NCBI RefSeq assembly: GCF_000014785.1
Contig: NC_008340.1
Coordinates: forward strand, 690,001 to 722,000
Direction: 5' to 3'
Length of the DNA: 32,000 nt
Source of the DNA: Alkalilimnicola ehrlichii MLHE-1
Lineage (GTDB): Bacteria; Pseudomonadota; Gammaproteobacteria; Nitrococcales; Halorhodospiraceae
Shown piece after piece: positions 1,801 to 21,034 of the stretch (position 1 is its first letter; each line of letters starts with the position of its first letter). Both the position numbers and the translations under genes were made by a program. Under the pieces are notes generated by a model. That model made no database searches. It saw only the letters and a list, made by a program, of their open reading frames with translations, and had not been told where the DNA came from.

Positions 1801-1805
1801 AAAAC

Positions 1806-3342: not shown

Positions 3343-4868
3343 CCAACATTGTCGAAGCCTTCACCGACCCGCAGTTGCTAGGCCAGTCGTTTGGCGAGGA
3401 TACCCGCGAGGCTTGGCGTGCTGTCCTGTCAGGCGCGTTCGCCCTGCCGATGGATGATGACCGCCTTGCCCTGTTTAAGCGGCTGTCAGGCGACCGTGAG
3501 CCGCCTCAGCGGCAGGCGCGGGAGCTATGGGCCATTGCGGGCAGGCGCAGCGATAAGACCCATACCGCAGCCGGCATTGCGGTCTACCTGGCGACCATCG
3601 GGGCGGAGCTGGACGGCACCCTGGCCCGCCTGACCGCTGGCGAGCGTGGTGTGGTTCAGTTGCTTGCGGTGGATCGCCAACAGGCCAAGGTTGCGCTTGG
3701 GTACGTTCGCGGCCTGTTCGCTGATAGCCCGGTCATGTCCAGCCTGGTGGAGAAGGAGAACACCGAGGGCGTTTTGCTCCGCAACGGCGTATCTATTGAG
3801 GTGGCCACCAACAGTCACCGGGCCGTGCGTGGGCGCACTCTGCTGGCGGCCATTCTGGACGAATGCGCCTTCTTCAAGGATGAGGCGACCGCAACCCCCG
3901 ATGTAGAGGTTTACCGCGCCCTGGTGCCTTCTCTGGCGACCACCGGGGGCATGCTTGTCGGCATTTCCAGCCCCTACGCCCGCCGGGGGCTGCTCTACAG
4001 CAAGTGGCGCAAGCACTACGGCAAGCCCGGTGATGTGCTGGTGGTGCAGGGCGGAACACTGGACTTCAACCCCACCCTTGATCCCCGCGTTATCGCGGAG
4101 GCGGAGCAGGATGACCCCGAGGCGGCCAAAGCCGAATGGCATGGGCAATTCCGTGCGGATGTTGAGGGTTTTGTAACACGCGAAGCCGTAGACGCCTGTA
4201 CCGTGCCGGCCCGGATCGAGCTACCGCCGGTGGCTGGCGAGCGGTACACGGCGTTTGTGGACCCGTCTGGCGGCTCCAAGGATGCGTTCACGCTGGCGAT
4301 CGCCCACCAGTCTGATGGTGTGGCCGTGGTCGACGCTATCCGCGCTCAGAAGCCCCCGTTCAGCCCGGAGGCGGTGGTTAAAGAGTTCGCCGGTCTGCTG
4401 AAGGAATACCGGATCAGCAAGGTGGTGGGCGACCGTTACGGCGGTGAGTTTCCGCGCGAGCTGTTCCGAAAACAGGGCATTGCCTACAAGCTATCTGATC
4501 GGCCTAAGTCTGACCTGTATCGTGACATGCTCCCGTTGCTCAATTCTGGGCGCGTGGAGTTGCTGGACAATGGCCGATTGCAAAACGAATTGACGAGCCT
4601 GGAGCGGCGCACCAGCCGCGCCGGGAAAGACTCAATAGACCACCCGCCAAATGGCACCGACGATGTGGTTAACGCGGTGGCCGGGTGTATAATTGAGGCA
4701 GCAAAACCCAAAGCCGTTCCCCGCGTGCGGCGGATGGGTGATTCGATCAGTTCCGGTTCCAATTCTGGTTCCAGCGTTCTGGATCGAATCGCGCAAGGTC
4801 AGAAAGCCAGCGGGAGGTTGGCGAGTACGCGCCGAAGTTTTCTGCGAGATGCAGACGGTTTCGGTTGA
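3339..4868 (+). CDS. Phage terminase large subunit (509 aa)
   Basis: The start ATG overlaps the upstream stop (ATGA), so the track's earlier start at 3273 is unlikely. Walker-A-like GRRSDKTHTAA and Walker-B-like LLAAILDECAF are present, and the C-terminal nuclease-like half has FVDPSGG...DAFTLAIAH and HPPNGTDDVVNAVAG. Confidence 0.85.
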   Translation: MTNIVEAFTDPQLLGQSFGEDTREAWRAVLSGAFALPMDDDRLALFKRLSGDREPPQRQARELWAIAGRRSDKTHTAAGIAVYLATIGAELDGTLARLTAGERGVVQLLAVDRQQAKVALGYVRGLFADSPVMSSLVEKENTEGVLLRNGVSIEVATNSHRAVRGRTLLAAILDECAFFKDEATATPDVEVYRALVPSLATTGGMLVGISSPYARRGLLYSKWRKHYGKPGDVLVVQGGTLDFNPTLDPRVIAEAEQDDPEAAKAEWHGQFRADVEGFVTREAVDACTVPARIELPPVAGERYTAFVDPSGGSKDAFTLAIAHQSDGVAVVDAIRAQKPPFSPEAVVKEFAGLLKEYRISKVVGDRYGGEFPRELFRKQGIAYKLSDRPKSDLYRDMLPLLNSGRVELLDNGRLQNELTSLERRTSRAGKDSIDHPPNGTDDVVNAVAGCIIEAAKPKAVPRVRRMGDSISSGSNSGSSVLDRIAQGQKASGRLASTRRSFLRDADGFG

Positions 4869-4909
4869 TTGATGAAAGCGGGTTTTCACTTCAACCGAGG
4901 TAACGAGTT

Positions 4910-6049
4910 ATGACGCATCAAGTGAAGGAAATGGTCGAGGGCGTGGCCCGAGACTTCGAGGGGTTTAAGTCCCGCCAGGATCAAGCCCTGTCCGACCTGG
5001 GCGAGCGCGTGAAGCGTGCCGAGACCCTGGCCGCCCGCAAGGTGGGCATGACCGTGGACAGCGGCGCAGGCATGGGGCCGGAGACCAAGGCGGTCCGTGA
5101 GTGGCTGCGTGGTGGCGACTTCGACCGCAAGGCCCTGAGCATCGAGGATGACGGCCAAGGCGTGACCGTGCGCAGCGATTGGGCGGATCAGATTTTCAAG
5201 CGCATTCGGGAATCCAGCCCGGTCCGGCAGGTGGCTAATAACCTGTCCACCAATTCCAACGAATTGGAGGTTCTGGTTGACCGTGGTGAACCGGACTCAG
5301 CGTGGGTGGCTGAAAAGGGCGACCGCGATCCGACTGCCGCTAGTTTCATGTCTCGGCATAAGATTGCGGTGCATGAACATTATGCGTATCCGAGCGTAAC
5401 CCAGCAATTCCTGGAGGATAGCCGGCTCGACCTGGAGCAGTGGTTGCAGGACAAGATCGGAACCCGTTTCGGTCGGCAGGAAGCCGAATCCTTTATCAAG
5501 GGTGACGGCAACGGCAAGCCTCGCGGCATTCTGGATTACGACACCGTGCCGGATGGTGATTTCGAGTGGGGCGCTGATCCTGCCGATTACACCATCGGGG
5601 CGATCTATACCGGTGAATCGGGTGACTTCCCGAGCAACAATCCCGATAACGTGCTCTACGATGTTGTGGACGCGCTCAAGTCGGATTACCTGGGCAATGC
5701 ACGGTTCATGATGAGCCGCGCCACGATGAACAAAATTCGGAAGCTGCGGGATGGTGACGACCGTGCCCTGCTCCAGATGAGCCTGGCGGAAGGTCGGCCC
5801 AACACGCTTCTTGGGTTCCCGGTGGTGATTGCCGAGGATATGCCGGACCCGGCTGCCGATTCCGAGTCGATCCTGTTCGGTGACTTCGGCCAGGCTTACA
5901 CCATCGTTGACCGGATCGGAGTAAGCGTGCTGCGTGATCCCTACTCCCTGCCCGGATGGGTCCGCTGGTATGTGCGCAAGCGGATCGGTGGGGCGCTGAC
6001 CAACCCCGAGGCCGTGAAGGCCGTGGTGTTCGGCGCTGAGCCGAGCTGA
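4910..6049 (+). CDS. Phage major capsid protein, HK97 family (379 aa)
   Basis: The product has a charged, coiled-coil-like N-terminal region of about 100 aa. This is followed by a typical HK97-fold core pattern (FGRQEAESFIKGDGNGKPRGIL, YLGNARFMMSRATMNKIRKL, ILFGDFGQAYTIVDRIGVSVLRDPYS). RBS is GAGGTAACGAGTT-ATG. Confidence 0.85.
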   Translation: MTHQVKEMVEGVARDFEGFKSRQDQALSDLGERVKRAETLAARKVGMTVDSGAGMGPETKAVREWLRGGDFDRKALSIEDDGQGVTVRSDWADQIFKRIRESSPVRQVANNLSTNSNELEVLVDRGEPDSAWVAEKGDRDPTAASFMSRHKIAVHEHYAYPSVTQQFLEDSRLDLEQWLQDKIGTRFGRQEAESFIKGDGNGKPRGILDYDTVPDGDFEWGADPADYTIGAIYTGESGDFPSNNPDNVLYDVVDALKSDYLGNARFMMSRATMNKIRKLRDGDDRALLQMSLAEGRPNTLLGFPVVIAEDMPDPAADSESILFGDFGQAYTIVDRIGVSVLRDPYSLPGWVRWYVRKRIGGALTNPEAVKAVVFGAEPS

Positions 6050-6205
6050 TGAACACCGCCCGCTCCCGAGGCGGCAATATCGGGAGAGTTCCCCCCAGCC
6101 ACCGGGGCGGCGCAGGCCGAGAGGGTGGACGCGGCAACGTCCTGGCCGTGTCTCAGAACAAGGGCGGGCGGTATGGTTCCACCGCTGCGAAGAAACGGAC
6201 CCGCG

Positions 6206-6241
6206 CCCCCCGAGCGAGATGCTGCGGGGGGCATCTTTTTG
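6206..6241 (+). terminator. Putative rho-independent terminator downstream of the capsid gene
   Basis: A 7-bp all-G/C stem CCCCCCG (6206-6212) / CGGGGGG (6225-6231) has a 12-nt loop and is followed by CATCTTTTTG. Confidence 0.5.
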
Positions 6242-6256
6242 TATGGAGGTGCAACC

Positions 6257-6538
6257 ATGCTGACAGCCGAGGAACGTCTATGGGTGGCCGCACTGGCCCG
6301 GTATGTACAGGACGCACGCGCTCCCAGTGCCTACGGTGACGAGGGCGAGGCGCTGGCGGACCTGGAGGGCGATGCCGTGATACTGCGCCGCCTGGCGGAG
6401 CTGGCGGGCTATGACCCCGAGGCCACGGTGGTGGCGGTGAGGCGGGAGGTGTTGGGTGGTCCGCCTGAACATCCACCGGCGAAACCTGTCCGCCAGCCAG
6501 AAGGCCGCCATCGCCACCGAAGCGCTTGCCATGTATGA
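6257..6538 (+). CDS. Hypothetical phage protein (93 aa, MLTAEERLWVAALARYVQ...)
   Basis: ATG at 6257 is preceded by GGAGG (6244-6248). It is the internal part of track ORF 6125..6538. No family recognised, and the 3' end overlaps the next ORF in another frame. Confidence 0.4.
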   Translation: MLTAEERLWVAALARYVQDARAPSAYGDEGEALADLEGDAVILRRLAELAGYDPEATVVAVRREVLGGPPEHPPAKPVRQPEGRHRHRSACHV

Positions 6539-6830
6539 GGCGGAGGCGAAGGAGAGGCAGCGGGAGAGCGGAAGGTTTGCGGGTAAGGATGCTGAAGGGA
6601 ACCCGGTTGTTCAGGTTCCGGAAATCTTGCCGGAACCTGAATCCGCACCAACGGCCAACAGCGAACGTGCGGCGGTAGCTGATGAGCCCACGGAACAGCC
6701 CAAGCCGTCCCGCTACGAGCAAGAATCCCGCGCCAAGGCCGCCGCAGACTTCGGCACCAATCCGCGCTATGTGTCGGATGCGAAGCGGCCTGAGAACAAC
6801 GCGGCCACCATCTCCAGGTTGTCGAGATAG
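6456..6830 (+). CDS. Second ParB-like HTH-only ORF, possibly a truncated remnant
   Basis: LNIHRRNLSASQKAAIATEAL and ESRAKAAADFGTNPRYVSDAKR match the post-N-domain and HTH parts of ParB-like proteins. The frame only opens at 6441 (TGA at 6438-6440), so the N-terminal ParB/Srx domain is absent. The tail overlaps a convergent small ORF. Confidence 0.4.
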   Translation: MVRLNIHRRNLSASQKAAIATEALAMYEAEAKERQRESGRFAGKDAEGNPVVQVPEILPEPESAPTANSERAAVADEPTEQPKPSRYEQESRAKAAADFGTNPRYVSDAKRPENNAATISRLSR

Positions 6831-6916
6831 CGCTGATAGTCTGCGCGGGCTTGCTCGGTATCCGGGTTGTATCCGTAGTGCTGGCACCAGCGGACGAAGT
6901 CGGTGGGATTGTTCAT
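6767..6916 (-). CDS. Small hypothetical protein (49 aa, MNNPTDFVRWCQHYGYNPDTEQARADYQRYLDNLEMVAALFSGRFASDT); not in the ORF track
   Basis: Found by hand translation of the minus strand. ATG at 6916-6914 is preceded by AGGAG with a 7-nt spacer. It is the only minus-strand ORF in the phage block, and its 3' 64 nt overlap the end of 6456..6830. Confidence 0.35.
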   Translation of the reverse strand: MNNPTDFVRWCQHYGYNPDTEQARADYQRYLDNLEMVAALFSGRFASDT

Positions 6917-6959
6917 GGCCTTGCTCCTATTCGTAGTGGATGAACAGGGAAGGCGGAGT

Positions 6960-7026
6960 ATCAGGCGCTTTCAGGTTGGATGGCCGGGTGGTGTGATGCC
7001 CGTTTTTCCGTCTGTAAGCGCCTGAT
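6960..7026. repeat. Perfect 11-bp inverted repeat between the phage block and the tRNA 3' end
   Basis: ATCAGGCGCTT (6960-6970) pairs with AAGCGCCTGAT (7016-7026) across a 45-nt spacer. On the plus strand the right arm is followed by TTTTC. Confidence 0.5.
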
Positions 7027-7039
7027 TTTCCTAGGTAGG

Positions 7040-7115
7040 TGGTGGAGCCGAGGGGAGTCGAACCCCTGACCTCAGCAGTGCGATTGCTGCGCTCTCCCAA
7101 CTGAGCTACGGCCCC
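7040..7115 (-). tRNA. tRNA-Ala (anticodon CGC), 76 nt with encoded CCA
   Basis: The reverse complement reads GGGGCCGTAGCTCAGTTGGGAGAGCGCAGCAATCGCACTGCTGAGGTCAGGGGTTCGACTCCCCTCGGCTCCACCA. The 7-bp acceptor stem has G3:U70, the alanine identity pair. The D stem is GCTC/GAGC. The anticodon stem CAGCA/TGCTG carries loop AUCGCAC. The T arm is AGGGG-TTCGACT-CCCCT. Confidence 0.93.
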
Positions 7116-7260
7116 GGTGCAGCGCAAATCCTACCACCGCTGGCGTTAAGATAAAAGGGCGCCCATATGGGTGCGGCCGAATCGCGCCAGTAGCGCGGGG
7201 CGCGGCCCGTGCGCCGGTCGTGTTCGGCGTCCTCGTGAGCCTCGGACTGTGGTGCGGGCA

Positions 7261-8394
7261 TCATGGATGCATACGCACCTTTTGAAGTTTGCAGGATCTG
7301 CCGGCGGCGAGCAGCTCGGGGAGTTTGATGTCGGGGTCTTGCTCGCCGGCCTGCACCATGCGCCGGGCGGCGGCCTCCAGTTCGGGGCTGGGCGTGGCCC
7401 AGTCGTGCTCCGGGATGGGTTCGGACCAGGCCTGGATCTCGGGGGGAATGGGTGCGCGGCTCTGGTGGTATTCCCAGGTGGCCAGCCGGAAGGGCAGCTT
7501 CCAGAAGGTGATCAGGTGGTAGAGGTACCAGAAGAAGACGAAGACCCGGCTGGTGAAGCCATCACGAAGGTCTTCGTGGAGTTTCTTGCGGGCGATCTCG
7601 AGGGTGTGGACGCCGTCGTAGGGGAGGTGCTCCCTGGGGTCGATGGGCAAGCCGGAGAAGGTTTTCGTGGGCCGTTCGAGCGTGCCCGGCCCGTGATCCA
7701 TGTAGCGGCGGATGGCCTCCCACAGGCCCAGGGCCTCCTCGGGGAGCGAGGCGGGGAAGAGGGCGGTATAGGACTGTCCGGTTTCCGCGTCCTCGACGGT
7801 GAGGCCGAAGTTGTAGTGGGTCATGGCGCCGTAGGGGGTGGCGCCGCTGCTGGTGGCCATCCAGGCGGTGACGCGCTCGAACGGGGCGACGAGGGTTTGG
7901 CCGGTTTCGGGGTCGAAGCAGGCGACCTCCCGGCGCTGGCGATGGAAGCGCACCGGGGGATGCCGCCGGGCCTGCTTCATGCGGTCGACGAAGCCGTAGA
8001 GGAGGATCAGAAACAACAGGGTGCCGCCGAAAAGGCCGTAGGGGATGGAGACTATGGCGGCATAGAGGGCATTTGCCCAGAATGGTTCGCCATACACGAG
8101 TCCGGCCGCGCCGATAAGCATCGGTGCACCGAGCCCGATAAAGATCACGCCGATGAAGAAGGGCATGCCGATCATGACCTGGTGGGCTTGGGCGGTGTGG
8201 CGGCTGGAGTCCAGATCCAGGTAGGTCTGGTCGATGTGGACGAGGAACTGCTTCGGGTCCATGGGGCGCACCGGGAGCGGTAATGGCAGCGGCGCGAGGA
8301 CCAGCGCCTCGCCGGTGGCGAAGCGGCGCACGTCCCCGGCCCGGGGATGTCCGGAGAGGTCGGGGGCTTCGTTGGTGGGGGCGGGCTTGCTCAT
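7261..8394 (-). CDS. T6SS immunity-like inner-membrane protein, distal paralogue (377 aa)
   Basis: Start ATG overlaps the stop of the upstream paralogue (ATGA at 8391-8394). Two hydrophobic helices (MIGMPFFIGVIFIGLGAPMLIGAAGL and ALYAAIVSIPYGLFGGTLLFLILLYGF) plus a third hydrophobic stretch (RVFVFFWYLYHLITFW). Immunity function is inferred from position downstream of a membrane toxin. Confidence 0.75.
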   Translation of the reverse strand: MSKPAPTNEAPDLSGHPRAGDVRRFATGEALVLAPLPLPLPVRPMDPKQFLVHIDQTYLDLDSSRHTAQAHQVMIGMPFFIGVIFIGLGAPMLIGAAGLVYGEPFWANALYAAIVSIPYGLFGGTLLFLILLYGFVDRMKQARRHPPVRFHRQRREVACFDPETGQTLVAPFERVTAWMATSSGATPYGAMTHYNFGLTVEDAETGQSYTALFPASLPEEALGLWEAIRRYMDHGPGTLERPTKTFSGLPIDPREHLPYDGVHTLEIARKKLHEDLRDGFTSRVFVFFWYLYHLITFWKLPFRLATWEYHQSRAPIPPEIQAWSEPIPEHDWATPSPELEAAARRMVQAGEQDPDIKLPELLAAGRSCKLQKVRMHP

Positions 8395-9566
8395 GGTTTC
8401 CGTGGGGTCCGCTCGTTGTTGCCGTTGCCGTTGCCGTTGCCGCCGTCGTGGTCCGGGTGCCAGTCGGCGATGCCGGCGGCGAGCAGCTCGGGGAGTTTGA
8501 TGTCGGGGGCTTGCTCGCCGGCCTGCACCATGCGCCGGGCGGCGGCCTCCAGTTCGGGGCTGGGCGTGGCCCAGTCGTGCTCCGGGATGGGTTCGGACCA
8601 GGCCTGGATCTCGGGGGGAATGGGCGCGCGGCTCCGGTGGTATTCCCAGGTGGCCAGCCGGAAGGGCAGCTTCCAGAAGGTGATCAGGTGGTAGAGGTAC
8701 CAGAAGAAGACGAAGACCCGGCTGGTGAAGCCATCACGAAGGTCTTCGTGGAGTTTCTTGCGGGCGATCTCGAGGGTGTGGACGCCGTCGTAGGGGAGGT
8801 GCTCCCTGGGGTCGATGGGCAAGCCGGAGAAGGTTTTCGTGGGCCGTTCGAGCGTGCCCGGCCCGTGATCCATGTAGCGGCGGATGGCCTCCCACAGGCC
8901 CAGGGCCTCCTCGGGGAGCGAGGCGGGGAAGAGGGCGGTATAGGACTGTCCGGTTTCCGCGTCCTCGACGGTGAGGCCGAAGTTGTAGTGGGTCATGGCG
9001 CCGTAGGGGGTGGCGCCGCTGCTGGTGGCCATCCAGGCGGTGACGCGCTCGAACGGGGCGACGAGGGTCTGGCCGGTGTCGGGGTCGAAGCAGGCGACCT
9101 CCCGGCGCTGGCGATGGAAGCGCACCGGCGGATGCCGCCGGGCCTGCTTCATGCGGTGGAAAAAGCCGTGGAGGGCAATGAGAAACAACAGGGTGCCGCC
9201 GAAAAGGCCGTAGGGGATGGAGACAATGGCGGCATGCAGGGCGCTTGCCCAAAAGGTGTGGTCGGTCCCGAACGCGGTCGTGCCAATAAGCAACGGAAAA
9301 CCGAGCCCGATAAAGATCACGCCGATGAAGAAGGGCACGCCGATCATGACCTGGTGGGCTTGGGCGGTGTGGCGGCTGGAGTCCAGATCCAGGTAGGTCT
9401 GGTCGATGTGGACGAGGAACTGCTTCGGGTCCATGGGGCGCACCGGGAGCGGTAATGGCAGCGGCGCGAGGACCAGCGCCTCGCCGGTGGCGAAGCGGCG
9501 CACGTCCCCGGCCCGGGGGTGTCCGGAGAGGTCGGGGGCTTCGTTGGTGGGGGCGGGCTTGCTCAT
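8391..9566 (-). CDS. T6SS immunity-like inner-membrane protein, proximal paralogue (391 aa)
   Basis: The true start is MSKPAPTNEA at 9566, overlapping the toxin stop (ATGA at 9563-9566). The track's 586-aa version is an upstream extension over the toxin 3' end. Topology matches 7261..8394, but the tail is different (…IADWHPDHDGGNGNGNGNNERTPRKP). Confidence 0.75.
   Translation of the reverse strand: MSKPAPTNEAPDLSGHPRAGDVRRFATGEALVLAPLPLPLPVRPMDPKQFLVHIDQTYLDLDSSRHTAQAHQVMIGVPFFIGVIFIGLGFPLLIGTTAFGTDHTFWASALHAAIVSIPYGLFGGTLLFLIALHGFFHRMKQARRHPPVRFHRQRREVACFDPDTGQTLVAPFERVTAWMATSSGATPYGAMTHYNFGLTVEDAETGQSYTALFPASLPEEALGLWEAIRRYMDHGPGTLERPTKTFSGLPIDPREHLPYDGVHTLEIARKKLHEDLRDGFTSRVFVFFWYLYHLITFWKLPFRLATWEYHRSRAPIPPEIQAWSEPIPEHDWATPSPELEAAARRMVQAGEQAPDIKLPELLAAGIADWHPDHDGGNGNGNGNNERTPRKP
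8418..8441 (-). repeat. Hexanucleotide repeat (GTTGCC x4 on +, GGCAAC x4 on -) encoding (Gly-Asn)4 in the proximal paralogue tail
   Basis: Read directly as GTTGCCGTTGCCGTTGCCGTTGCC. It is in frame with 8391..9566. Confidence 0.85.
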
Positions 9567-12500
9567 GGTTTCTTCCCGGGTTGCAAGGGCACGGTCGGTG
9601 GGCTGCCGGTGGTCCACGCCCGCCCGGACAAGGGTTGGATGGGGCGTTCGGCCGAGCCGTCCTCTCGTCCGCCGGACAGGGCCTGGAAAAAGGTGGGCAC
9701 CGGGTCGGGGTTGAGGGTGTCCAGGTGGAAGTGGACCTCCCGCTCCAGGCCGGGGACCAACGCGGAGGGGTAGGTCAGGCGCAGGGAGAGGCCGGTCTGG
9801 GCGTTGAGTTCTTCCGGAAACAGCGGCAGGCGCAGGGTCGTGGGCGCGTCGGGCGATGCTTCGAGCTGCTCGGCGAGCGACTGGCTCCAGGGGGCCCACC
9901 ACTGGTCGGGGGCCTTGCGCAGGGCGGCCAGCCGCGCGGCACCGGCGGCGAGATCCTCCGGGGCCAGGTCCGGGATCACCAGTTCCAGTTCCGCCTGCCC
10001 GTCCACCCGGCGCAGGGTGAGCCGGGGTTCGACGAGGGCATTCACCCAGCGGCGCCGGTGGGTCTCCAGATCCAGCCCCGCATCGGCCACCCCCCAGGCG
10101 CTCTGCTCCAGCCAGGTGGCCAGCGCGTCGCGCTGGTTGCGGCGGTACCACCAGAGGCCGCCGAGATAGACGGGGGTGAAGAGCAGGCCGAGGAGGTTGA
10201 CGCGCACGAAGATGGCGACGAAGCGGGCGCTGCGGGTGGCCCAGGCGGCGGCGCTGAGTCCGCCCTCCTGGTAGGCGGAGACCACTAACGTGGTATTCCG
10301 CCAGAAGCCCCAGCCCTGGGTGGCGGTCAGCCCGCCGGACCCGGCCAGGGTGAGGGTGGCGGCGGCCAGGGCCTGGCCATCGCCCCGTTGCAGGGCGTCG
10401 CCCCAGCGGTGGAGGCTGCGGCCGGTCTCCGAGAGCGAAGCAAGAAAGCCCAGGCCGTACGCCCCGGTGCCCAGGTGCCCGGTGAGCCAGCCGAGGCGGG
10501 CGGCCACCGCGCCCCGGGCCATCTGGCTGCGCACCCGGGGTAGCTGCACCGCGAGCAGGCTGATGCCGATGCCCTGGGCGGCGGCGAAGGTGGGGGCCGC
10601 GGCATTGACTAAACCGCCAAGTACTGCCAACAGGTCGCGCAGGCCCCTTTGCTCTTTGTCGCGAAACTCGACGTACGCACTCCCCAGATTGCGCAACTGC
10701 AGCACCGCGATCACCACGGAAAGCCCGTCGCTGCGGAGCACGCGGCCGGCGTCGGCGCGGGTTTGCAGGGGGCGGCCGGCCCGGGCGTCGTCGGCCATGC
10801 GGCGGATCTCCCGGTGGGTGTCGGCGTCCAGCCCCCGCAACTGCAGGCCCACGCGGTTGTCCGTCCCCTTCAGGGGGTTGATGGCGCCGGCCAGGCGCCG
10901 TTCCACGTAAAGCAACTGACCGCGAATGCGCTCGCGGTATTGCTGCATATCCCGCCGGGTTTCCCGGTAGACCCTGGCGTCGATGACGCCCCGGCGGCGG
11001 CGTACCCCTTCGTCCTTCAGGCGGCGGTTCGCGCCGCGTAGCGCCTCGCGGAGGGCGAGGGCCTGGTCCACGTCGGCGTTGAAGCGCCGCACGTGGCGTT
11101 CCGTGGGCAGCTCGACGCTGGCGCCGTGTTCGGCGAACCCCCGCACCATGTCCAGCCAGGCGGCGCCGGGCACGCGGCGCAAGATGTCGTCGAGGTCGAG
11201 GTTGCCGCCGGCCTGGAATCGTTGCAGCGTTTCGTCCAGGGCCTGGGCGAAACGCAGTTCGCGGGCCGGCCGGAAGGTGGCACGGCGCAGCTCATCCAGC
11301 CCCATCGCCGTCTGCCCGAGCTCCCGGGCGGCGGGCAGGGCGTAGGTCTCCCGGATGGCCTGAAGCCGGAGCGCCAGTTGATGGAAGCTTTCGACGGTCT
11401 CGGGCGCCTGCAGGGTGCCGGCGGTTACGTAGGTCACCTGCGCGAGTTCTTCCAGCTCCCGGGCGGCCCGGCGCTGGTCGCCCGGGTGGAGCGTGTGGAA
11501 CAGCGGTTCGTTCCACTGGGGGTGGGCGTCGAGCCAGTCGGCGATGGACTCGGCGGCCTCGTCGGTGCGGCAGATGTCCCGCAGGCAGGCATACTCGGTG
11601 TACAGGGCCTGCTGGAGCTGGTCGTCGAGTGCGGGGTCGAAGTACCAGGCCGCCTCGTGGAAGTGGTTGGTCTCGACCAGGCGGACCCGGTCCTCGGTGA
11701 TGCGATCGAGCAGCGCGTGCCAGCGCCGCAGGTGCGCCCGGTGGGTGTCGAGGAAGTCGCCCATGGCGTCCCGCTCGACAAGCTCGAGCAGCCCCCTGGA
11801 GCCGAGCCCGGCACCCTGCAGCCGCGCCCGGAGGGCGTCGCGCTGCTCGTCGATCAGGTGCTGGTGGCGTTCCCGGAGCTCGGGGCCCAGGGTGTCCATC
11901 ATCTGCTGGCGGGCCTGGGCCACGCGGCGGTGGGCGGGCTCGGCGAACGGGTTGATGGCTTCGAGCAAGCCCTCGCCGCTGCCGAAGGCCCGCCGGGTCG
12001 ATGCCAGGAACCCGCCGGATTCGTGTTCCAGGCTGTTGAGGTAGTCGAGGATGGCGCGCTGCTGTGCTTCGCTGGTCTCCTCGCGCAACGCCCGGAAGCG
12101 GGGGTCATCCACAAAGCCCTCCTCGTCGAGCAGGAAGAGGGATTCGATGAACCCGCCGGCCACGTACCGGGTCTCGTGCTCTCGCGCCCAGCTATCCAGC
12201 CACCCGACCACGTGGTCCTGGTAATCGGCGAGCTCCTGGAGCAGGCCCAGGTCGTCGCGCAGTATCAGGCCGTACAGGCGCTCGTCCGGGACACCCTCCG
12301 GCGCCCAGTGCCCGAGCAGGTCGTCCAGCGTGGTGCGTTCGAAGGGTGCGGGGGGCGGCCCGGCGGGAAAGGCCGCCCCGTCTGTGTCCGAACCGCCTCC
12401 CCCGCCCGATTCGGCCGCCTTTGCCTCGGGTGGCGGCGGTGGCGGGGCCGTCCAGGGGTAGGGGTTTCGTTCCGCCTCCATGGGGCTCTCCGGCGTGCCG

Positions 12501-13240
12501 CTCGCGGGTGGCTCGTGCAGCTCCGCCACGGCCGGGCGGATCCGGTCGCTGGCGAGCAGCGGCTCCACGCTGGTCGGGTCGTCTCCGTCGAAGCCGGCAG
12601 CCGCCCGCGCCAGATCCACGGACTGCATGCGGCGGTTGCGCTCGCCCGGGTTCTCCAGCATGCGGTTGCATCGGGCGGCGCTCCACTGGGCCGTGGCATA
12701 GGCGGCCTGGAGACGAGCGGCGGAGCCGAAGGTGAGATGGGGCGCGCCCTGCGCCTTTTCGCGCCGGTCTTCGGTCACGCCCTCGACCCCATCGAGCAGC
12801 CGGGTCAGGGTCATCGCCTGCAGCCGGAATTCGTACAGCCGGAGTGGCTGCTCGCCGGGAGCGCGCGGTTGCTCGATCACGTAGAGGTACCCCTCCCGCG
12901 CAAGGCGCACGCCGATCGGCCGCGTGCCAAGCGGCGGATAGGGCGCCCGGATCCGGGCGCCGGCGATCGCCTCGGGTTCCACCAGGGCGTAGCGCAAGGG
13001 CAGCAGGGTGATCTGCTCGACCGCCACCTCGCACGGTGCGGGGTGGCAGACGTCGCCCGGTGCCCGGCTGTCCGAAAGGCGCTCGCGGTTCTCCGGAAGC
13101 CGAACCTGCTGCCCGGGGTAAATGCAGTCAGGGTGTTCGATGTCGGGGTTCAGGGTCATCAGGGTTGCCGGGGGCACGCCATGCTGCCGGGCAATGCCCC
13201 AGAGGGTGTCGCCGTCGCGTACGGTGTGTATGGCACTCAT
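9563..13240 (-). CDS. T6SS effector: N-terminal LysM + VasX / BTH_I2691-family-like N-region + C-terminal multi-helix membrane-insertion region (1225 aa)
   Basis: Start MSAIHTVRDGDTLWGIARQHGVPPATLMTLNP...GQQVRLP is a LysM domain, and its ATG overlaps the DUF4123 stop (ATGA at 13237-13240). C-x4-C then ITLLPLRYALV...REGYLYVIE matches the VasX N-terminal pattern. Residues about 838-1032 carry five hydrophobic, Gly/Ala-rich helices. The 212-aa upstream extension in the track overlaps the adaptor gene and is rejected. Confidence 0.8.
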   Translation of the reverse strand: MSAIHTVRDGDTLWGIARQHGVPPATLMTLNPDIEHPDCIYPGQQVRLPENRERLSDSRAPGDVCHPAPCEVAVEQITLLPLRYALVEPEAIAGARIRAPYPPLGTRPIGVRLAREGYLYVIEQPRAPGEQPLRLYEFRLQAMTLTRLLDGVEGVTEDRREKAQGAPHLTFGSAARLQAAYATAQWSAARCNRMLENPGERNRRMQSVDLARAAAGFDGDDPTSVEPLLASDRIRPAVAELHEPPASGTPESPMEAERNPYPWTAPPPPPPEAKAAESGGGGGSDTDGAAFPAGPPPAPFERTTLDDLLGHWAPEGVPDERLYGLILRDDLGLLQELADYQDHVVGWLDSWAREHETRYVAGGFIESLFLLDEEGFVDDPRFRALREETSEAQQRAILDYLNSLEHESGGFLASTRRAFGSGEGLLEAINPFAEPAHRRVAQARQQMMDTLGPELRERHQHLIDEQRDALRARLQGAGLGSRGLLELVERDAMGDFLDTHRAHLRRWHALLDRITEDRVRLVETNHFHEAAWYFDPALDDQLQQALYTEYACLRDICRTDEAAESIADWLDAHPQWNEPLFHTLHPGDQRRAARELEELAQVTYVTAGTLQAPETVESFHQLALRLQAIRETYALPAARELGQTAMGLDELRRATFRPARELRFAQALDETLQRFQAGGNLDLDDILRRVPGAAWLDMVRGFAEHGASVELPTERHVRRFNADVDQALALREALRGANRRLKDEGVRRRRGVIDARVYRETRRDMQQYRERIRGQLLYVERRLAGAINPLKGTDNRVGLQLRGLDADTHREIRRMADDARAGRPLQTRADAGRVLRSDGLSVVIAVLQLRNLGSAYVEFRDKEQRGLRDLLAVLGGLVNAAAPTFAAAQGIGISLLAVQLPRVRSQMARGAVAARLGWLTGHLGTGAYGLGFLASLSETGRSLHRWGDALQRGDGQALAAATLTLAGSGGLTATQGWGFWRNTTLVVSAYQEGGLSAAAWATRSARFVAIFVRVNLLGLLFTPVYLGGLWWYRRNQRDALATWLEQSAWGVADAGLDLETHRRRWVNALVEPRLTLRRVDGQAELELVIPDLAPEDLAAGAARLAALRKAPDQWWAPWSQSLAEQLEASPDAPTTLRLPLFPEELNAQTGLSLRLTYPSALVPGLEREVHFHLDTLNPDPVPTFFQALSGGREDGSAERPIQPLSGRAWTTGSPPTVPLQPGKKP

Positions 13241-14028
13241 CGGGCGCCCCCCAGAACCAGTCGCTCGAGCGTACGGATTCGCTTCCCGGACGGTTGCCCG
13301 ACGTCCAGGAGTACGGCGAGACAGTCCTTTTCTTCCAGCCGGGCTTCGTGGGCCGCCACGAGCGCGACGAAACGGGCTATCTCGGGCTCGTCGTGAAAGC
13401 GGTAGCGCTGCGCGCGCTCGATCAGCCGCGCGCAGCGGTGCTGGCCGCCCGGCTGGCCGGCCAGACCCGAAGCCCGGGCCACAGCCACCCGGAACAGCCA
13501 ACAGGCCTGGGCCCGTAGGTGAGTCATGTGGGCCTCGCTTAGCTGGAACCAGCCTTCGTCGCGCGGGCCGCGTGCCTGGCCCTGGGATGGCGCGCGGATG
13601 GTGATGTCGGTGCCGGGCAGGTGCCAGGCGGTGATCGGCCCACTGAAGGCACGGCGCTCTTCGTAGTCGAGCATGCAGAGCAATGGGACGAGCTGCCCGG
13701 GCGAATAGAAGCGACAGTAGGCGCCCTGCCCGGAAGGCAGTCGCACGCTGATCAGGCTGCGCAGGTGGTCGGCCACCACGGCCGGATCGGCCGGGGATTC
13801 GAGCAGGATGCCGTGATCCCGCCAGGTTTCCGGGGTGGCCAGGAGCGCGCTGCCGGGCGAGGGTTTGACCAGGCAAGGGCTCACGGTGATCGCCTCCTGG
13901 TGCCGGGTGCCAGCAAAGAGTCGCTCGAGTTCGGGGGCGTCATCGTGCTGGTAGGCGAGCCTGGGAGCGTCCGTGGTGGCACCGTCGAGCAGGATCAGAC
14001 CGTTTTCCGGGGTGCGGGTGATAGCCAT
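13237..14028 (-). CDS. DUF4123-family T6SS adaptor/chaperone (263 aa)
   Basis: LILLDGATTDAPRL near the N-terminus and AYCRFYSPGQLVPLLCMLDYEERRAFSGPITAW match the DUF4123 signature (LLDGA ... RFYDPRVL ... FGPI.W). It lies between vgrG and the effector, as vasW does in Vibrio cholerae. Start chosen at MAITRT (14028), 14 nt after the vgrG stop; the track start at 14124 would overlap vgrG by about 80 nt. Confidence 0.8.
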   Translation of the reverse strand: MAITRTPENGLILLDGATTDAPRLAYQHDDAPELERLFAGTRHQEAITVSPCLVKPSPGSALLATPETWRDHGILLESPADPAVVADHLRSLISVRLPSGQGAYCRFYSPGQLVPLLCMLDYEERRAFSGPITAWHLPGTDITIRAPSQGQARGPRDEGWFQLSEAHMTHLRAQACWLFRVAVARASGLAGQPGGQHRCARLIERAQRYRFHDEPEIARFVALVAAHEARLEEKDCLAVLLDVGQPSGKRIRTLERLVLGGAR

Positions 14029-14042
14029 ATCGGCGAGCTCAT

Positions 14043-16226
14043 TCAGGCGTGATCCGGGTCGTCCTGACCCGTCGGGCACGGGCAATCGGCGAGCGGGCAG
14101 TCGCCGTTCGGGCCCCGGTGGCATTGCACCACCAAGGCGGCATCTTGCCCGGCCGCCTGACGCAGCTGGTCGGGTGCCAGCGTTCGTGCGTCGAGCAAGG
14201 CCTCCGGTCCAGCACCGGCCTCGCCGTATTGAACCTCCGGGACGGCGTGGCCCGGCAACAACGGCACCGCTGCCTGCTGGGCGCTCCCGGAGCCTGGTCG
14301 GCCCCCGGAGTTCATGCGGATGCCGGGGCCACTGAGGGTGATGCCGGAGGGGTCGAGCTTGATGAAACTGCCGCCCGCCTGGAGGGTGATCTCGGCACCG
14401 GCGTCGAGAACGACCTTGTTGCCCGCGCTGTAATGGACCTCGCGGCCCGTTTCAACGAGTTGAGAGGTGCCGAAGCGCTGATGCAGCGTGCCCTCCACGG
14501 TGAGATGCTGATCACCGGCAGTGCGCTCGCGCCGCTCGCCCTGCACGGTGAGGTGCTCGTCGCCGTGGATCTCCGCGAGCCGGTCGCCGTGGACGCCCAG
14601 GTGGCTGTGCCGGCCGATGGTCTCGGAGCGGTCGTTGCGGGTGTGCAGGTCGAGATCGCGCTGGGCGTGCAGGTGGATGCGCTCGGCGTCGCGGGCGTCC
14701 TCGAAGTGCAGTTCGTTGTAGCCCTCGCCGCCGTGGCTGCGACTGCGCAGCACGCTGCGGGTCTTGTGCTCGGGCAGCGGATAGGGCGGGGTGTTGTGGC
14801 CCTCGTAGACCCGGCCGGTGATCACCGGCTGATCCGGGTCGCCGGCCAGGAAGTCGACGATCACCGCATGGCCCACCCGGGGCAGGAACAGCCCGCCGTA
14901 GCCGGGCCCGGCCCAGGGCTGGGCGACGCGCAGCCAGGCGCTGGCGTGCTCGTCGTCGGCGGCGTAGCGGTCCCAGGGGAAACGGACCTTGACCCGGCCG
15001 TGCTCATCGCAGTGGATCGCCTCCCCCTCGGGGCCCACCACCCGGGCGATCTGCGGGCCTTCCATCCGCGGGCCGGCGTCCGGGTCGTGGGGCGGGCGCC
15101 AGTCGGTGTCGGCGGGCACAAGGGTGAGCCGGTTGTTCAGCCGGGCCACGCCTGCGGCTGCATCGCCCTTGCCCTCGGCGGCCAGCAGCACGGCGTCCTC
15201 TTCCAGCGCGGCGGGCTGGCGGGCGGTGTGGCGGGCGCCGACCACCTGCCAGTCGCGGCGCCGTTCGCCGGCGTCGTGGCCATCGAGGGTGAAGCGCACG
15301 CCGGGGCGCAGCTCGGCAATATCGCTCTCGGCCTCGGCGGTGTGGGCGTCGGCGCGCAACTGGCCGAGCCGGACCCGGGTGAAGGCCCGGCCGCTGGTCT
15401 CGGTCTTAAACCGGCCGGGGTGGTCGTAGTGCTCGTAGGGGGTGGCCCCCGACTCGGCGCCATCATGCCCGGCTGCCCCGTCCACCGCCTGCGCGTGGAT
15501 CAGCCGCCGCCGGGGGGTGCGGAAATGGCGATCCTCCAGGGTGGCGCGCTGCGCGCGCACCCGGTGGGCCTCGCGCAGGGTGTGCACATGACGGCCCTCG
15601 GCTACGCCGCCGGCGCGGGGGCGGTAGACCCATTCGCCCGCCTGCCCCAACCCCCGATGGGTATCGGTGAACACCGGGCGGTGGCCGCCCTCGGGGGTGT
15701 CGTCGAACTCGTGGAAGTAGACGATGCCCAACTCGGCGGCAAGCCGCTGGACAAAGGCCAGGTCGCTCTCCCGGTACTGCACCAGGTACTCGCGGGGCTC
15801 GGGGCGGTGGCGGACGGCGAAGGCGGCGTCGGTGATGCCATGTTCCGAAAGCAGGGTGTGGAGGACATCCAGCGGGCAGGCGTGCTGGAAGATGCGGGCG
15901 TTGCGGCGCAGGGCAAGGCGCCAGAGGGCGGGGCGGACGACCAGTTGGTAGGCGGTGCGCCGGGCGCCGGTGCGGCCGCGCTGGAACTCGGTGACCACGC
16001 CGTGGACCCGGCGGGTGACGCGGCCGGCCTGATGGATGGCCAGTGCCAGGCCCTGCTCAAGCCAGTCGTCGGGGGCGAGATCGGGCGAGGGGTGGACCAG
16101 GTCCAGGGTCAGGGTGAAGGGCCGGGAGAGGTGCTCATCCAGGGTGAACCCGGTGACCCGGGGCAGGTCGGCCTCCGCCACGCCGGGGCGCGAGAGGGCG
16201 AGGTACAGTCCGTTGTCCGTTTGCAT
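14043..16226 (-). CDS. vgrG: Type VI secretion spike protein VgrG (727 aa) with a short Cys-rich C-terminal tail
   Basis: The N-terminus (RVTGFTLDEHLSRPFTLTLDL) is typical of the gp27-like domain. The gp5-like OB and beta-helix region follows (PRMEGPQIARVVGPEGEAIHCDEHGRVKVRFPWDR; WLRVAQPWAGPGYGGLFLPRVGHAVIVDFLAGDPDQPVITGRVYEG). Repetitive H-x-x-V motifs and ITLSGPGIRMN occur near the end. Confidence 0.9.
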   Translation of the reverse strand: MQTDNGLYLALSRPGVAEADLPRVTGFTLDEHLSRPFTLTLDLVHPSPDLAPDDWLEQGLALAIHQAGRVTRRVHGVVTEFQRGRTGARRTAYQLVVRPALWRLALRRNARIFQHACPLDVLHTLLSEHGITDAAFAVRHRPEPREYLVQYRESDLAFVQRLAAELGIVYFHEFDDTPEGGHRPVFTDTHRGLGQAGEWVYRPRAGGVAEGRHVHTLREAHRVRAQRATLEDRHFRTPRRRLIHAQAVDGAAGHDGAESGATPYEHYDHPGRFKTETSGRAFTRVRLGQLRADAHTAEAESDIAELRPGVRFTLDGHDAGERRRDWQVVGARHTARQPAALEEDAVLLAAEGKGDAAAGVARLNNRLTLVPADTDWRPPHDPDAGPRMEGPQIARVVGPEGEAIHCDEHGRVKVRFPWDRYAADDEHASAWLRVAQPWAGPGYGGLFLPRVGHAVIVDFLAGDPDQPVITGRVYEGHNTPPYPLPEHKTRSVLRSRSHGGEGYNELHFEDARDAERIHLHAQRDLDLHTRNDRSETIGRHSHLGVHGDRLAEIHGDEHLTVQGERRERTAGDQHLTVEGTLHQRFGTSQLVETGREVHYSAGNKVVLDAGAEITLQAGGSFIKLDPSGITLSGPGIRMNSGGRPGSGSAQQAAVPLLPGHAVPEVQYGEAGAGPEALLDARTLAPDQLRQAAGQDAALVVQCHRGPNGDCPLADCPCPTGQDDPDHA

Positions 16227-16262
16227 GGCCAGTCCGTTGGCATGGGGAATCCGTAGTCGATT

Positions 16263-16292
16263 AGCCTAGGAGGGTGCCTTTTGGCTTGTCAA
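16263..16292 (-). promoter_or_regulatory. Candidate sigma-70 promoter for the vgrG module
   Basis: On the minus strand there is a perfect -35 TTGACA (16292-16287), an 18-nt spacer and TAGGCT (16268-16263). This lies about 35-65 nt upstream of the vgrG ATG, in the 153-nt gap after the efflux operon. Motif match only. Confidence 0.35.
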
Positions 16293-16379
16293 GGCATCGA
16301 CCGTCCGGGTGGTTTCCGCTGCATGGGCGGCGTGCCTGGCTGCCCGGAGGGCCGGTGTACGGCCCGGCGATCCACCGGA

Positions 16380-17950
16380 TCAGCGCCCCATGGCCTGAAT
16401 GCCGCGCCGCTCCAGCAGGGAGCCGTCCAGACGGTAAAGCTCGACCAGGGCCTGGCGGTAGCCGATTTCAGCGGCCTGTCGGTCCACCTGGGCCTGTAGC
16501 AGGTCGCGTTGCGCCTGCGAGAGGGCGAAAGCGGTGGCCTGGCCCACCTCAAAGCGGGCGCTCTCGGCCCGCAGGCGCTCCTCCTGGGCGGCAACGGTGG
16601 CCATGGTGGCTGCGATCTGCGCCTGGCTGCGGTCGACCTCCAGCCAGGCGGCCTGCACGTCCATCTGCACTAGGCGGGTCAGGTTGTCGATGCCGAGCAG
16701 GGCCTGTTCCCGTTGTAACCCGGCCTGGCGGTGTTCGGCCTGACCGGCCCGGCGGCCCAGGGGGTGTTCCACCCGAAGGCCTGCCACGGCGTCATAGCTG
16801 CGGCCGTCCAGTTCCTGCACCGCTGAACCGAAGGAGTCGGCAAAGCCGCTCTTGCCCAGGGTGACGAAAAGATCCAGCCGCGGCAGCAGGCCGTTGCGGG
16901 TGCGCACCAGCTCCAGCTCATTGCGCTCCAGAAGCAGCCGGGCCTCGCGCAGTTCGGCCCGGTGCTCCAGGGCGAGCAGCAGGTGGTTGGCCACCGGCTC
17001 CGGCTCGGTGTCCCCGGGCAGCGCGGGGGCGGTCTCCGGGGTCAGCTCCGGGGCCTCGCCCGGGGCGTAGTCGGTCCCGGTCAGTTGCAGTAGCTCCAGT
17101 CGCGCCAGGTCGCGCCGGTTGCGGGCGTCGATCAATTCCTGCCGGCGGAGCGCGGCCTCCGCCTCCAGCGGGGCCAGTTCGGTCTCCGACAGGTCCCCCA
17201 GCCGGATCCGTTCCCGTGTGCGCTCGATCTGTTCCCCGGCCAGCGCCAGCGAGGCTTCGAACAACCCGATCTCGCGTTCCGCCTGCACCAAGTCCCAGTA
17301 GGTGCTCTCCACGTCGGCGATCAGGGCCTCGGTAAAGCCACGCAGTTCGTACGCCGAGCGCAGGGTGTCGAGCTCGGCCTGCTGGACGCGCACGAGGTTC
17401 ACGTCGCGGCCGCGGCCCTGCAGCAGGGGCTGGTTGAGGGTGAGGTTGAGCCGGGAGCGGTGCAGGGCGGTGCCGTCCCGGGCATCTGGGGCGTCGCTCT
17501 CGCTTAGCCGCCGGTCCTGGGTGACGCCCAGTTCCACCTCGGTGCCGGGGGCGAACTGCTGGCGGACGCCGGCGCGCACGTTTTCGCGCTCGCTCTCCAC
17601 GGCAAAGCGGTCGCCGCGGCGGTCATCCAGGCGGTCCTCCCGGTCGCGGCGCACGCTCAGCTCGGCGAAGAGCTCCGGGTCGAAGACCGCCCGCTCGATC
17701 TCCTGGAAGGTGGCGGCGATCTCCGGCTCCAGGCGCTCGGAGCGCAGTGCGGGGTTGGATTCCAGGGCGCGCAGGACCGCCTCCTCCAGGGTGAGGGGCT
17801 CGGCCTGTACGCCGCTGGCGAGCAGCGCCGCCAGGACGGCCAGAAGGCCGGTGCGCAACGGCCCCCACCGGCGCCGGGGCCGGTTCACGGGGGCGCCCGG
17901 GCGGGCCGGTGCAACGAGCGGGCCGGGGTGGCCCGGGTGGCGATCCTGGG

Positions 17951-17954: not shown

Positions 17955-21030
<3,076 letters not shown>

Positions 21031-21034
<4 letters not shown>

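Follow-up and report, generated by a model that had tools for sequence, protein, structure and literature searches.

The 32-kb window analyzed here, a 32,000-nucleotide stretch of DNA from Alkalilimnicola ehrlichii MLHE-1, contains on its minus strand an orphan operon consisting of vgrG, tap (DUF4123), an effector gene, and two immunity candidates of the DUF6708 type. The features are as follows, in window positions and in the order of transcription:

14043..16226, minus strand: vgrG, first gene of the operon, encoding a 727-aa T6SS spike protein (TIGR03361, E 2e-163)
13237..14028, minus strand: gene for a 263-aa DUF4123 (Tap) adaptor (PF13503, E 7e-26), its stop codon overlapping the effector ATG
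9563..13240, minus strand: effector gene, 1225 aa plus stop, encoding a probable LysM-headed toxin of the VasX/Ptx2 family
13091..13240, minus strand: LysM domain, residues 1-50 (Pfam, AF2 fold, Foldseek)
13034..13090, minus strand: low-confidence, probably disordered linker, residues 51-69 (pLDDT, pre-MIX segment)
12467..13033, minus strand: MIX/VasX_N alpha/beta domain, the predicted adaptor-binding module, residues 70-258 (PF20249, Foldseek)
12344..12466, minus strand: Pro/Gly-rich linker, residues 259-299 (sequence, low pLDDT)
10730..12343, minus strand: helical scaffold domain with the equivalent of the Ptx2 "sensor region," residues ~300-837 (phmmer, AF2, Foldseek)
10136..10729, minus strand: putative transmembrane (pore-forming) domain of five Gly/Ala/Leu-rich helices, residues ~838-1035 (hydropathy, AF2, Ptx2 alignment)
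9701..10135, minus strand: C-terminal beta-sandwich, strands at residues ~1073-1173 (AF2, Foldseek, tblastn)
9566..9700, minus strand: poorly conserved C-terminal tail, residues 1181-1225 (identity, dN/dS, pLDDT)
8391..9566, minus strand: immunity candidate A (immA), 391 aa, DUF6708-related, with a two-helix TM hairpin; its ATG overlaps the effector stop codon
7261..8394, minus strand: immunity candidate B (immB), 377 aa, a tandem paralogue of immA

All five ORFs of the operon are intact, with overlapping stop and start codons. The island adjoins a tRNA-Ala gene and a phage-like block of lower GC content, and its own GC content of 69-72% is the same as that of the neighboring chromosomal RND operon. 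T6SS core genes were not found within the 32-kb window, and a literature search on Alkalilimnicola and T6SS yielded no T6SS report for this organism. A promoter scan of positions 6900-16500 found no strict sigma-70 consensus upstream of vgrG. By eye, a TTGACA hexamer is visible ~60 nt upstream of vgrG with only a weak -10 hexamer; no promoter is claimed.

VgrG contains the Phage_GPD, Phage_base_V, and Gp5_trimer_C domains, and the 263-aa form of the adaptor is identical to WP_011628398.1. Upstream Tap homologues occur in 94 of 161 related loci. The presence of an adaptor gene directly upstream of the effector, with vgrG before it, supports the proposal of the first-pass annotation that a DUF4123 protein loads this toxin. 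In 139 of the 161 related loci, the effector is followed downstream by a homologue of immA. The match of immA to PF20455 (DUF6708) is below the cutoff of 27 bits (15.7 bits, E 0.013); among 10 homologues with 31-36% identity that occupy the corresponding place in related loci, scores are 25-40 bits and 8 reach the cutoff. Outside the TM hairpin (residues 77-137), immB is 94% identical to immA. These two downstream genes, named "hypothetical," can now be called immunity candidates.

Minus-strand positions 9563-13240 translate to 1225 codons plus a stop, and the product is 100% identical to WP_011628397.1/ABI56002.1 of A. ehrlichii MLHE-1, so the ORF proposed at first pass is real. The NCBI name for WP_011628397.1 is already "toxin VasX." An extended ORF of 1437 aa starting at a TTG at position 13876 was rejected as the gene because the annotated protein begins at the ATG at 13240, which overlaps the stop codon of the DUF4123 gene upstream. 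Plus-strand ORFs overlapping the effector gene were also rejected, being typical of DNA with 70% GC.

The N-terminal LysM called at first pass is borne out by Pfam (PF01476, residues 5-49, E 3.8e-13, 49.6 bits against a cutoff of 20.9) and by AF2, which models the canonical beta-alpha-alpha-beta fold with a pLDDT of ~90. The model superimposes on the solved LysM domains 7r1l_A, 4uz3_C, and 5k2l with rmsd values of 0.9-1.3 A (Foldseek). The GDTL..IA...LN...PGQ motif positions are retained when the segment is aligned to 4uz2, peptidoglycan or GlcNAc polymers being the predicted ligands, and the closest sequence matches of the segment are bacterial cell-wall enzymes (phmmer). The linker that follows (residues 52-67, pLDDT <50) carries the family's pre-MIX "SDSRxPG..C" segment, which aligns to Ptx2 residues ~31-50. 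In the model, the LysM stands apart as its own domain, joined through ~17 low-confidence, probably flexible residues and placed ahead of the family's usual short leader.

A LysM is rare, being present in only 2 of ~160 related loci, both from one metagenome, whose proteins share 89% and 70% identity with the effector (hereafter the 89% and 70% relatives). This count rests on an exhaustive 50%-representative search and two contig scans, one of which, a genome-contig scan, used a profile built from 11 closer sequences; the LysM was sought in related loci by local phmmer and tblastn with the LysM segment as the query. A word-indexed search of a 5.8-billion-protein set with the full-length query returned the effector itself, the 70% relative, and one LysM protein. 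In the same set, a 48-sequence profile returned nothing further and a query of effector residues 1-75 returned no candidates. The LysM is 87% identical in the 89% relative and 66% identical in the 70% relative, values like those of the core domains and above those of the linkers. Its dN/dS against the 70% relative is 0.64, a noisy value from 49 codons that is not clearly below the whole-protein value of 0.38.

The second domain was assigned to VasX_N (PF20249, residues 70-212, E 1.7e-24, 87.1 bits against a cutoff of 27), and Foldseek pairs the N-terminal AF2 model with the MIX domains of Ptx2 (9qpv, E 1.3e-7) and Tke5 (9r8g_A, E 1.3e-4), in agreement with the VasX-type N-region described previously. 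The motifs listed for it, CHPAPC (65-70), LLPLRYALV (79-87), and GYLYVIE (117-123), are where they were placed; "C-x4-C" is not a conserved motif, since C65 is Ser in the 70% relative and C70 is the only one of its cysteines that is invariant in the family. The Pro/Gly linker noted earlier was confirmed at residues 266-285 (PPPPPPEAKAAESGGGGGSD); the whole linker (259-299) has low pLDDT in AF2 and only 46% identity to the 70% relative.

The core from ~300 to 830, left unassigned at first pass, is the scaffold domain of the VasX/Ptx2 family by phmmer, AF2, and Foldseek. It is all-helical in AF2, with pLDDT mostly 80-97. The model of residues 290-1225 (pLDDT 81.6) has Ptx2 (9qpv) as its sole significant Foldseek match (E 5.6e-21, prob 1.00, TMq 0.48, 959 columns). 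The rmsd to 9qpv is large, in line with what would be seen if the AF2 model represents the extended TMD state reported for Ptx2.

Kyte-Doolittle peaks at residues 839-857, 867-903, and 1003-1030 and five long AF2 helices (840-861, 867-902, 906-952, 955-993, and 997-1035) uphold the five hydrophobic helices first reported, and nt 10145-10729 are correct for residues 838-1032. Their description as colicin-like does not hold: a colicin domain was rejected, since Pfam gave no colicin hit at E<=0.1 and the 50 best Foldseek matches in the PDB include no colicin. The transmembrane domain of Ptx2 is described by its authors as a unique fold (bioRxiv 10.1101/2025.04.30.651342).

Residues 1033-1225, also unassigned before, contain the beta-sandwich (Ig-like) domain of the VasX/Ptx2 family. 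Its strands have pLDDT values of ~85-95, the secondary Foldseek matches of the 290-1225 model are Ig-like/C2 domains, and the beta-sandwich is kept in 35 related loci (tblastn). On these models, it is predicted to correspond to the Ig-like CTD in Ptx2 and to the membrane-binding RBD in Tke5. The tail beyond it (1181-1225) is 42% identical to the 70% relative, with a dN/dS of 0.82 and block-mean pLDDT values down to 53-66 in parts.

By phmmer, the effector matches Ptx2 (PDB 9qpv) with an E value of 4.9e-89, far beyond chance, over query residues 47-1077 and chain residues 31-1023. Its score against NF041559 (BTH_I2691_fam) is 116.8 bits (E 1.1e-33; protein residues 77-1062, model positions 11-840 of 858). 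Because this is below the curated cutoff of 150, the sequence places it in the wider VasX family, outside the curated subfamily model though homologous end to end. The effector has the features of the VasX family, namely, a MIX/VasX_N domain, end-to-end homology, a scaffold with TMD and beta-sandwich, and the gene context, and it is very probably a T6SS pore-forming, membrane-depolarizing toxin of that family, in the Ptx2-like branch, encoded in an orphan operon. All regions left open by the first-pass annotation now map to domains of a structurally and functionally characterized toxin family, and the practical outcome is an annotation.

Ptx2 acts in the periplasm, dissipates the electrical component of the PMF, and binds Tap6 through MIX (bioRxiv 10.1101/2025.04.30.651342). 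Tke5 forms ion-selective pores, its Tap3-MIX complex was studied by cryo-EM, and its beta-rich region binds membrane (PMC13133200, PMC12909789). The membrane-inserting, periplasm-acting toxin proposed at first pass is supported through homology to Ptx2, VasX, and Tke5, for which periplasmic action and depolarization were shown experimentally (bioRxiv 10.1101/2025.04.30.651342; PMC13133200). From homology to these three toxins, we infer the following mechanism. The DUF4123 adaptor would bind MIX (70-258) in the producer cytoplasm and load the toxin onto its cognate VgrG spike, with the scaffold (300-837) shielding the hydrophobic helices (838-1035) in the soluble state. T6SS firing would place the toxin in the competitor's periplasm, where the C-terminal beta-sandwich and the sensor region would touch the inner membrane. 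The five helices would then swing out and insert to form an ion-conducting channel, collapsing the membrane potential. The two DUF6708-type immunity proteins would lie in the inner membrane and protect sister cells.

Pore formation as such probably does not require the LysM. The domain is most likely an accessory module that would attach to glycan strands of peptidoglycan in the target periplasm and increase local retention or concentration near the inner membrane, and the previously suggested retention of the toxin at the sacculus is plausible. We put forward only tentatively a peptidoglycan-tethered pore toxin, in which docking to the sacculus would hold the elongated toxin in the periplasm and favor inner-membrane insertion, the module being convergent with that of TseVF of Vibrio fluvialis if the two families are unrelated. 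Deletion of the LysM from TseVF left toxicity on periplasmic expression unchanged (PMC12861213), and any LysM contribution here may therefore, by analogy, be small or specific to delivery. Dispensability of the LysM, which the first-pass annotation had listed as counting against its proposal, thus has a precedent in TseVF that may extend to this effector by analogy only.

A role in secretion, as an extra loading or recognition element or through contact with the producer's own cell wall during spike passage, would also place the benefit in delivery, as may be the case for TseVF, whose LysM is dispensable for toxicity yet present in ~99% of homologues (PMC12861213). The LysM does lie at the extreme N terminus, next to the adaptor-binding MIX, and the N-terminal extensions of BTH_I2691 proteins are often T6SS related, with MIX, PAAR, Tap, and VgrG recorded beside LysM (PMC13133200, Fig. 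1C legend). T6SS cargo is loaded in the cytoplasm, however, without peptidoglycan polymer; about 158 of the 161 related loci have the same Tap/VgrG arrangement and no LysM; and here MIX and the conserved pre-MIX segment are intact, making a secretion role unlikely. Nor does the island look like a silent, horizontally acquired relic that no apparatus fires and in which the LysM is a neutral fusion. The lack of T6SS core genes in the window, the adjacent tRNA-Ala and lower-GC phage-like block, and the result of the promoter scan are compatible with such a relic, but its ORFs are all intact and translationally coupled through overlapping stop and start codons, its GC content matches that of the RND operon, and the effector, including its LysM, is kept in two diverged relatives, one of which (70%) gives a dN/dS of 0.38 over the whole gene. 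Orphan vgrG-tap-effector-immunity islands are moreover normal for VasX and Ptx2 (PMC13133200, table in Discussion), and we regard the relic as improbable.

Two further readings concern the target. Chitin oligomers are also LysM ligands, chitinase and plant chitin-receptor LysM domains are among the structural matches, and VasX kills Dictyostelium, according to work cited in PMC13133200; an anti-eukaryotic VasX variant directed at chitin-bearing fungi, amoeba cysts, or crustacean surfaces would fit these points. Such a variant is very doubtful beside two dedicated downstream immunity genes, the mark of an antibacterial effector, and best LysM sequence matches to bacterial cell-wall enzymes, while nothing in the sequence separates chitin from peptidoglycan specificity. 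That LysM is usually joined to peptidoglycan hydrolases, families of which are among the NCBIfam matches of the LysM stretch, could instead suggest an enzymatic cell-wall- or lipid-degrading toxin with the LysM as its substrate-binding module. This identity was rejected as scarcely credible: Pfam and NCBIfam scans found no catalytic domain, and all of the sequence after the LysM aligns to the nonenzymatic Ptx2.

The effector belongs to a known toxin family, its sole unusual feature being the front-end LysM, common to a small clade of close relatives only. Ptx2 (Pseudomonas aeruginosa PA14, H2-T6SS; PDB 9qpv) shows homology to the effector that begins in the pre-MIX leader and extends as far as the beginning of the C-terminal domain, and it has the same order of MIX, helical scaffold with sensor region, TMD, and Ig-like CTD; its loading likewise depends on a DUF4123 adaptor, and an immunity gene comes after it. 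Foldseek gives an identity of 22% when the full-length structures are aligned and 35% for MIX. Ptx2 lacks a LysM, its MIX beginning at residue ~36, whereas the effector has in addition a Pro/Gly linker between MIX and scaffold and a second immunity gene. Tke5 (Pseudomonas putida KT2440, K3-T6SS; PDB 9r8g) and VasX (Vibrio cholerae) share the architecture of MIX, alpha-region, and beta-rich region and also lack a LysM. Both are much more distant than Ptx2, with no Tke5 or VasX chain matched at E<=0.01 by phmmer. Tke5, a biophysically characterized ion-selective pore former with a solved Tap3-MIX interface (PMC12909789, PMC13133200), is encoded inside a T6SS cluster and the effector in an orphan vgrG island. 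The combination of LysM and BTH_I2691 is already recorded as 1 of 61 family architectures (CDART; PMC13133200, Fig. 1C), an entry with the same two-part architecture that is listed in that figure without function, distribution, or structure.

TseVF (VflT6SS2; PMC12861213) is the only tested LysM-headed T6SS membrane toxin. Compared by description only, it is similar in size (~1200 aa), in its N-terminal LysM (residues 2-49), in its vgrG-tap-effector-immunity order, and in being periplasm acting and membrane disrupting, and it differs in its immunity protein, which is periplasmic and TPR-like with a signal peptide, whereas the candidates here are TM-hairpin, DUF6708-related proteins. According to its authors, TseVF does not resemble VasX in sequence, in predicted domains, or in structure (PMC12861213). 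LysM heads thus recur on Tap-loaded T6SS membrane toxins, and if the tethering proposal is true and TseVF and VasX are truly unrelated, the LysM would constitute a selectable "periplasmic retention" module acquired convergently by such toxins. The TseVF precedent suggests that any LysM effect lies in delivery or retention rather than toxicity, which would modestly extend knowledge of how T6SS effectors are retained in the correct compartment. The LysM clade, comprising the effector and its 89% and 70% relatives, offers a natural with/without comparison against the ~160 relatives that lack the domain.

The effector (window 9563-13240, minus strand; Alkalilimnicola ehrlichii MLHE-1) encodes 1,225 residues identical to WP_011628397.1/ABI56002.1, which is named "toxin VasX" by NCBI and "Peptidoglycan-binding LysM" by UniProt. 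It is an uncharacterised member, new to the known VasX/Ptx2 family, and is gene 3 of 5 in a co-oriented, translationally coupled series. A TTG start at 13876 from the mechanical ORF list was rejected for it; its start is the ATG at 13240, which overlaps the preceding gene's stop codon. The other genes of the island and its flanks are as follows.

Genes of the island and its flanks
16380-22260: RND efflux operon, flanking the island
14043-16226, minus strand: vgrG (TIGR03361, E = 2e-163)
13237-14028, minus strand: DUF4123 adaptor (263-residue form identical to WP_011628398.1)
8391-9566, minus strand: membrane-protein gene, immunity candidate A, in a tandem pair downstream of the effector
7261-8394, minus strand: membrane-protein gene, second immunity candidate, in tandem with candidate A
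7040-7115: tRNA-Ala(cgc), flanking the island on the other side, directly after the second immunity gene

The effector stop and the immunity start overlap as ATGA. The mechanical ORF of the adaptor (13237-14124) adds 96 nt ahead of the annotated start at 14028 and overlaps the end of vgrG; this added stretch is also conserved in L001, an effector-related metagenome locus (tblastn), and is probably the conserved 3′ end of vgrG rather than a longer adaptor. T6SS core genes were absent from the 32-kb window. A phage-like block on the plus strand (window 1-7115) ends near the tRNA, with a GC content of 60-65% versus approximately 70% in the vgrG/effector island.

Genes of the phage-like block
37-1800, plus strand: DUF3987 helicase
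2968-3342, plus strand: ParB-like
3273-4868, plus strand: large terminase
4910-6049, plus strand: HK97-type major capsid

Portal or tail genes were not seen for this block within the window, so the block may represent a satellite or the remains of a prophage, inserted close to the tRNA.

The first-pass annotation was right in outline, but it listed the effector core and C-terminus as unassigned, which is out of date, and likened the hydrophobic helices to a colicin pore, for which we found no Pfam colicin match at E ≤ 0.1 and none among the top 50 structural matches. The single strong match among PDB sequences is Pseudomonas aeruginosa Ptx2 (9qpv chain A; phmmer, E = 4.9e-89), aligned continuously from residues 47-1077 to 31-1023 of that chain. 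NCBIfam BTH_I2691_fam covers residues 77-1062 with 116.8 bits, under its cutoff of 150. Residues 290-1225 were modeled with AlphaFold2 from a 45-sequence alignment (mean pLDDT, 81.6; pTM, 0.68), giving a large all-helical region, the predicted five long helices (840-861, 867-902, 906-952, 955-993, and 997-1035), and a beta-sandwich at ~1073-1173. The helices lie in the expected Gly/Ala/Leu-rich stretch (838-1035), which has three strong hydropathy peaks. Ptx2 was also the sole significant PDB match to this model in Foldseek (E = 5.6e-21; probability, 1.00; TMq, 0.48 over 959 columns). A high rmsd was expected, given the Ptx2 authors' report that the transmembrane helices of that toxin, buried in the cryo-EM structure, are extended away from the scaffold by AlphaFold (bioRxiv 10.1101/2025.04.30.651342). 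Among the hits ranked next (E > 0.03) are beta-sandwich domains of the Ig-like and C2 types, aligned to the C-terminal domain (CTD). Ptx2 comprises a MIX (VasX_N) domain (36-258), a scaffold (259-816 and 963-999) with a sensor region (315-411), a transmembrane domain (TMD; 817-962), and an Ig-like CTD (bioRxiv 10.1101/2025.04.30.651342), and this map carries over directly to the effector.

Effector domains from the Ptx2 map
Residues ~300-837: scaffold
Residues ~838-1035: TMD and returning scaffold helix
Residues ~1073-1173: beta-sandwich CTD

The core and C-terminus therefore have assignments, as domains of a family whose first structures date from 2025-2026. In the related Tke5, the helical region is enough to kill, and binding to model membranes is a property of the beta-rich region (PMC12909789). 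After the beta-sandwich, the effector ends in a Pro-rich tail of ~45 residues (1181-1225; window 9566-9700, minus strand) that is poorly conserved (42% identity and dN/dS of 0.82 versus the 70% relative, a LysM-headed metagenome homologue).

The N-terminal claims held up: LysM (PF01476, residues 5-49, E = 3.8e-13), VasX_N (PF20249, residues 70-212, E = 1.7e-24), the motifs LLPLRYALV (79-87) and GYLYVIE (117-123), and the Pro/Gly linker (266-285). Only half of the proposed C-x4-C survives, with C70 invariant in the family and C65 replaced by Ser in the 70% relative. Modeling residues 1-300 (pLDDT, 79.4) gave a beta-alpha-alpha-beta LysM (1-50; pLDDT, ~90), a segment with pLDDT of <50 (52-67), and an alpha/beta MIX domain (pLDDT of >90 across most of 110-210). 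In Foldseek, the LysM part superposes on solved LysM domains at 0.9 to 1.3 Å rmsd, and the MIX part matches Ptx2 (E = 1.3e-7) and Tap3-bound Tke5 (9r8g_A; E = 1.3e-4). The segment before MIX, SDSRAPGDVC, pairs with the Ptx2 leader SDSRSPSGTC (phmmer); the LysM was therefore added ahead of the short N-terminal leader usual in the family, leaving the adaptor-binding module undisturbed.

Residues 60-1225 were searched exhaustively against 1.84 billion 50%-identity representatives, yielding 105 clusters at E ≤ 1e-3. Among 46 inspected full-length (at least 900 residues) VasX-family sequences, LysM occurs in 2, the effector and the 70% relative. Scanning GTDB genomes, one per species, gave 205 relatives, the best 80 of which (mostly Pseudomonas, Halomonas, Marinobacter, and Shewanella; 25-34% identity) have none; a metagenome scan gave 110, with LysM in 2 of the best 80, L082 (the 89% relative) and L083 (the 70% relative, on the same contig as L001). 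The fusion therefore marks a small clade. It is conserved inside that clade: LysM identity to the effector is 87% and 66% in the 89% and 70% relatives, respectively, near that of the core domains and exceeding that of the linkers (46-55%) and tail. From 49 codons, its dN/dS of 0.64 is too noisy to be of much help. Both relatives come from JGI metagenome 3300000447 (SR_TP_S13solDRAFT_1001904 and SR_TP_S13solDRAFT_1001820), which suggests that Alkalilimnicola-like strains differing in toxin allele occur together there. L001, at least, has the tap-effector-immunity order seen in the window.

Of 161 related loci, 139 have an immunity homologue downstream of the effector; in the first 81 loci, the diverged tandem copies number 1, 2, 3, and 4 in 33, 30, 10, and 1 loci, respectively. 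All 10 sampled homologues match Pfam DUF6708, 8 at or above the cutoff; immunity candidate A falls below threshold. RQRREVACFD, directly after the second transmembrane helix, is a strongly conserved motif in DUF6708-type immunity proteins. The two window copies are 94% identical with mosaic differences: 1 in nt 1-228, 33 (18%) in nt 229-411, and 7 in nt 412-1095, the flanks being ~99% identical and the 3′ tails unrelated. Such a mosaic points to gene conversion or exchange of a cassette. The divergent block encodes a two-helix transmembrane hairpin (residues 77-137), with an entirely different interhelix loop (96-104), and varies more than any other part across 191 distinct homologues of the family. 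Relaxed constraint could explain this variability, because transmembrane helices tolerate substitution well. The block includes 7 synonymous codon changes, and its synonymous divergence is raised; a hairpin acting as specificity determinant, with flanks homogenised by gene conversion, would fit.

Homology, fold, and gene context place the effector among characterised relatives, by analogy with which Tap (the DUF4123 adaptor) would bind MIX and couple the toxin to VgrG, the toxin would be injected into the competitor's periplasm, the CTD and sensor region would engage the inner membrane, and the membrane proteins encoded downstream would give immunity. The LysM is a rare accessory domain. We rank first, as a speculative and rather doubtful proposal, that it retains the toxin at peptidoglycan, which is topologically sensible because Ptx2 is toxic solely from the periplasm, where peptidoglycan lies. 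A role in delivery, chitin targeting, or no measurable role at all ranks lower. TseVF of Vibrio fluvialis, which like the effector has an N-terminal LysM, kills unchanged without it when expressed in the periplasm of Escherichia coli, and ~99% of TseVF homologues keep the domain (PMC12861213). TseVF (1,197 residues) is Tap dependent, membrane disrupting, and reported to be unrelated to VasX (PMC12861213). The architecture of the effector is itself already catalogued, with LysM among the N-terminal domains paired with BTH_I2691 in CDART's 61 architectures, its function uncommented (PMC13133200, the Tke5 paper). There is thus precedent for a Tap-loaded T6SS membrane toxin headed by LysM.
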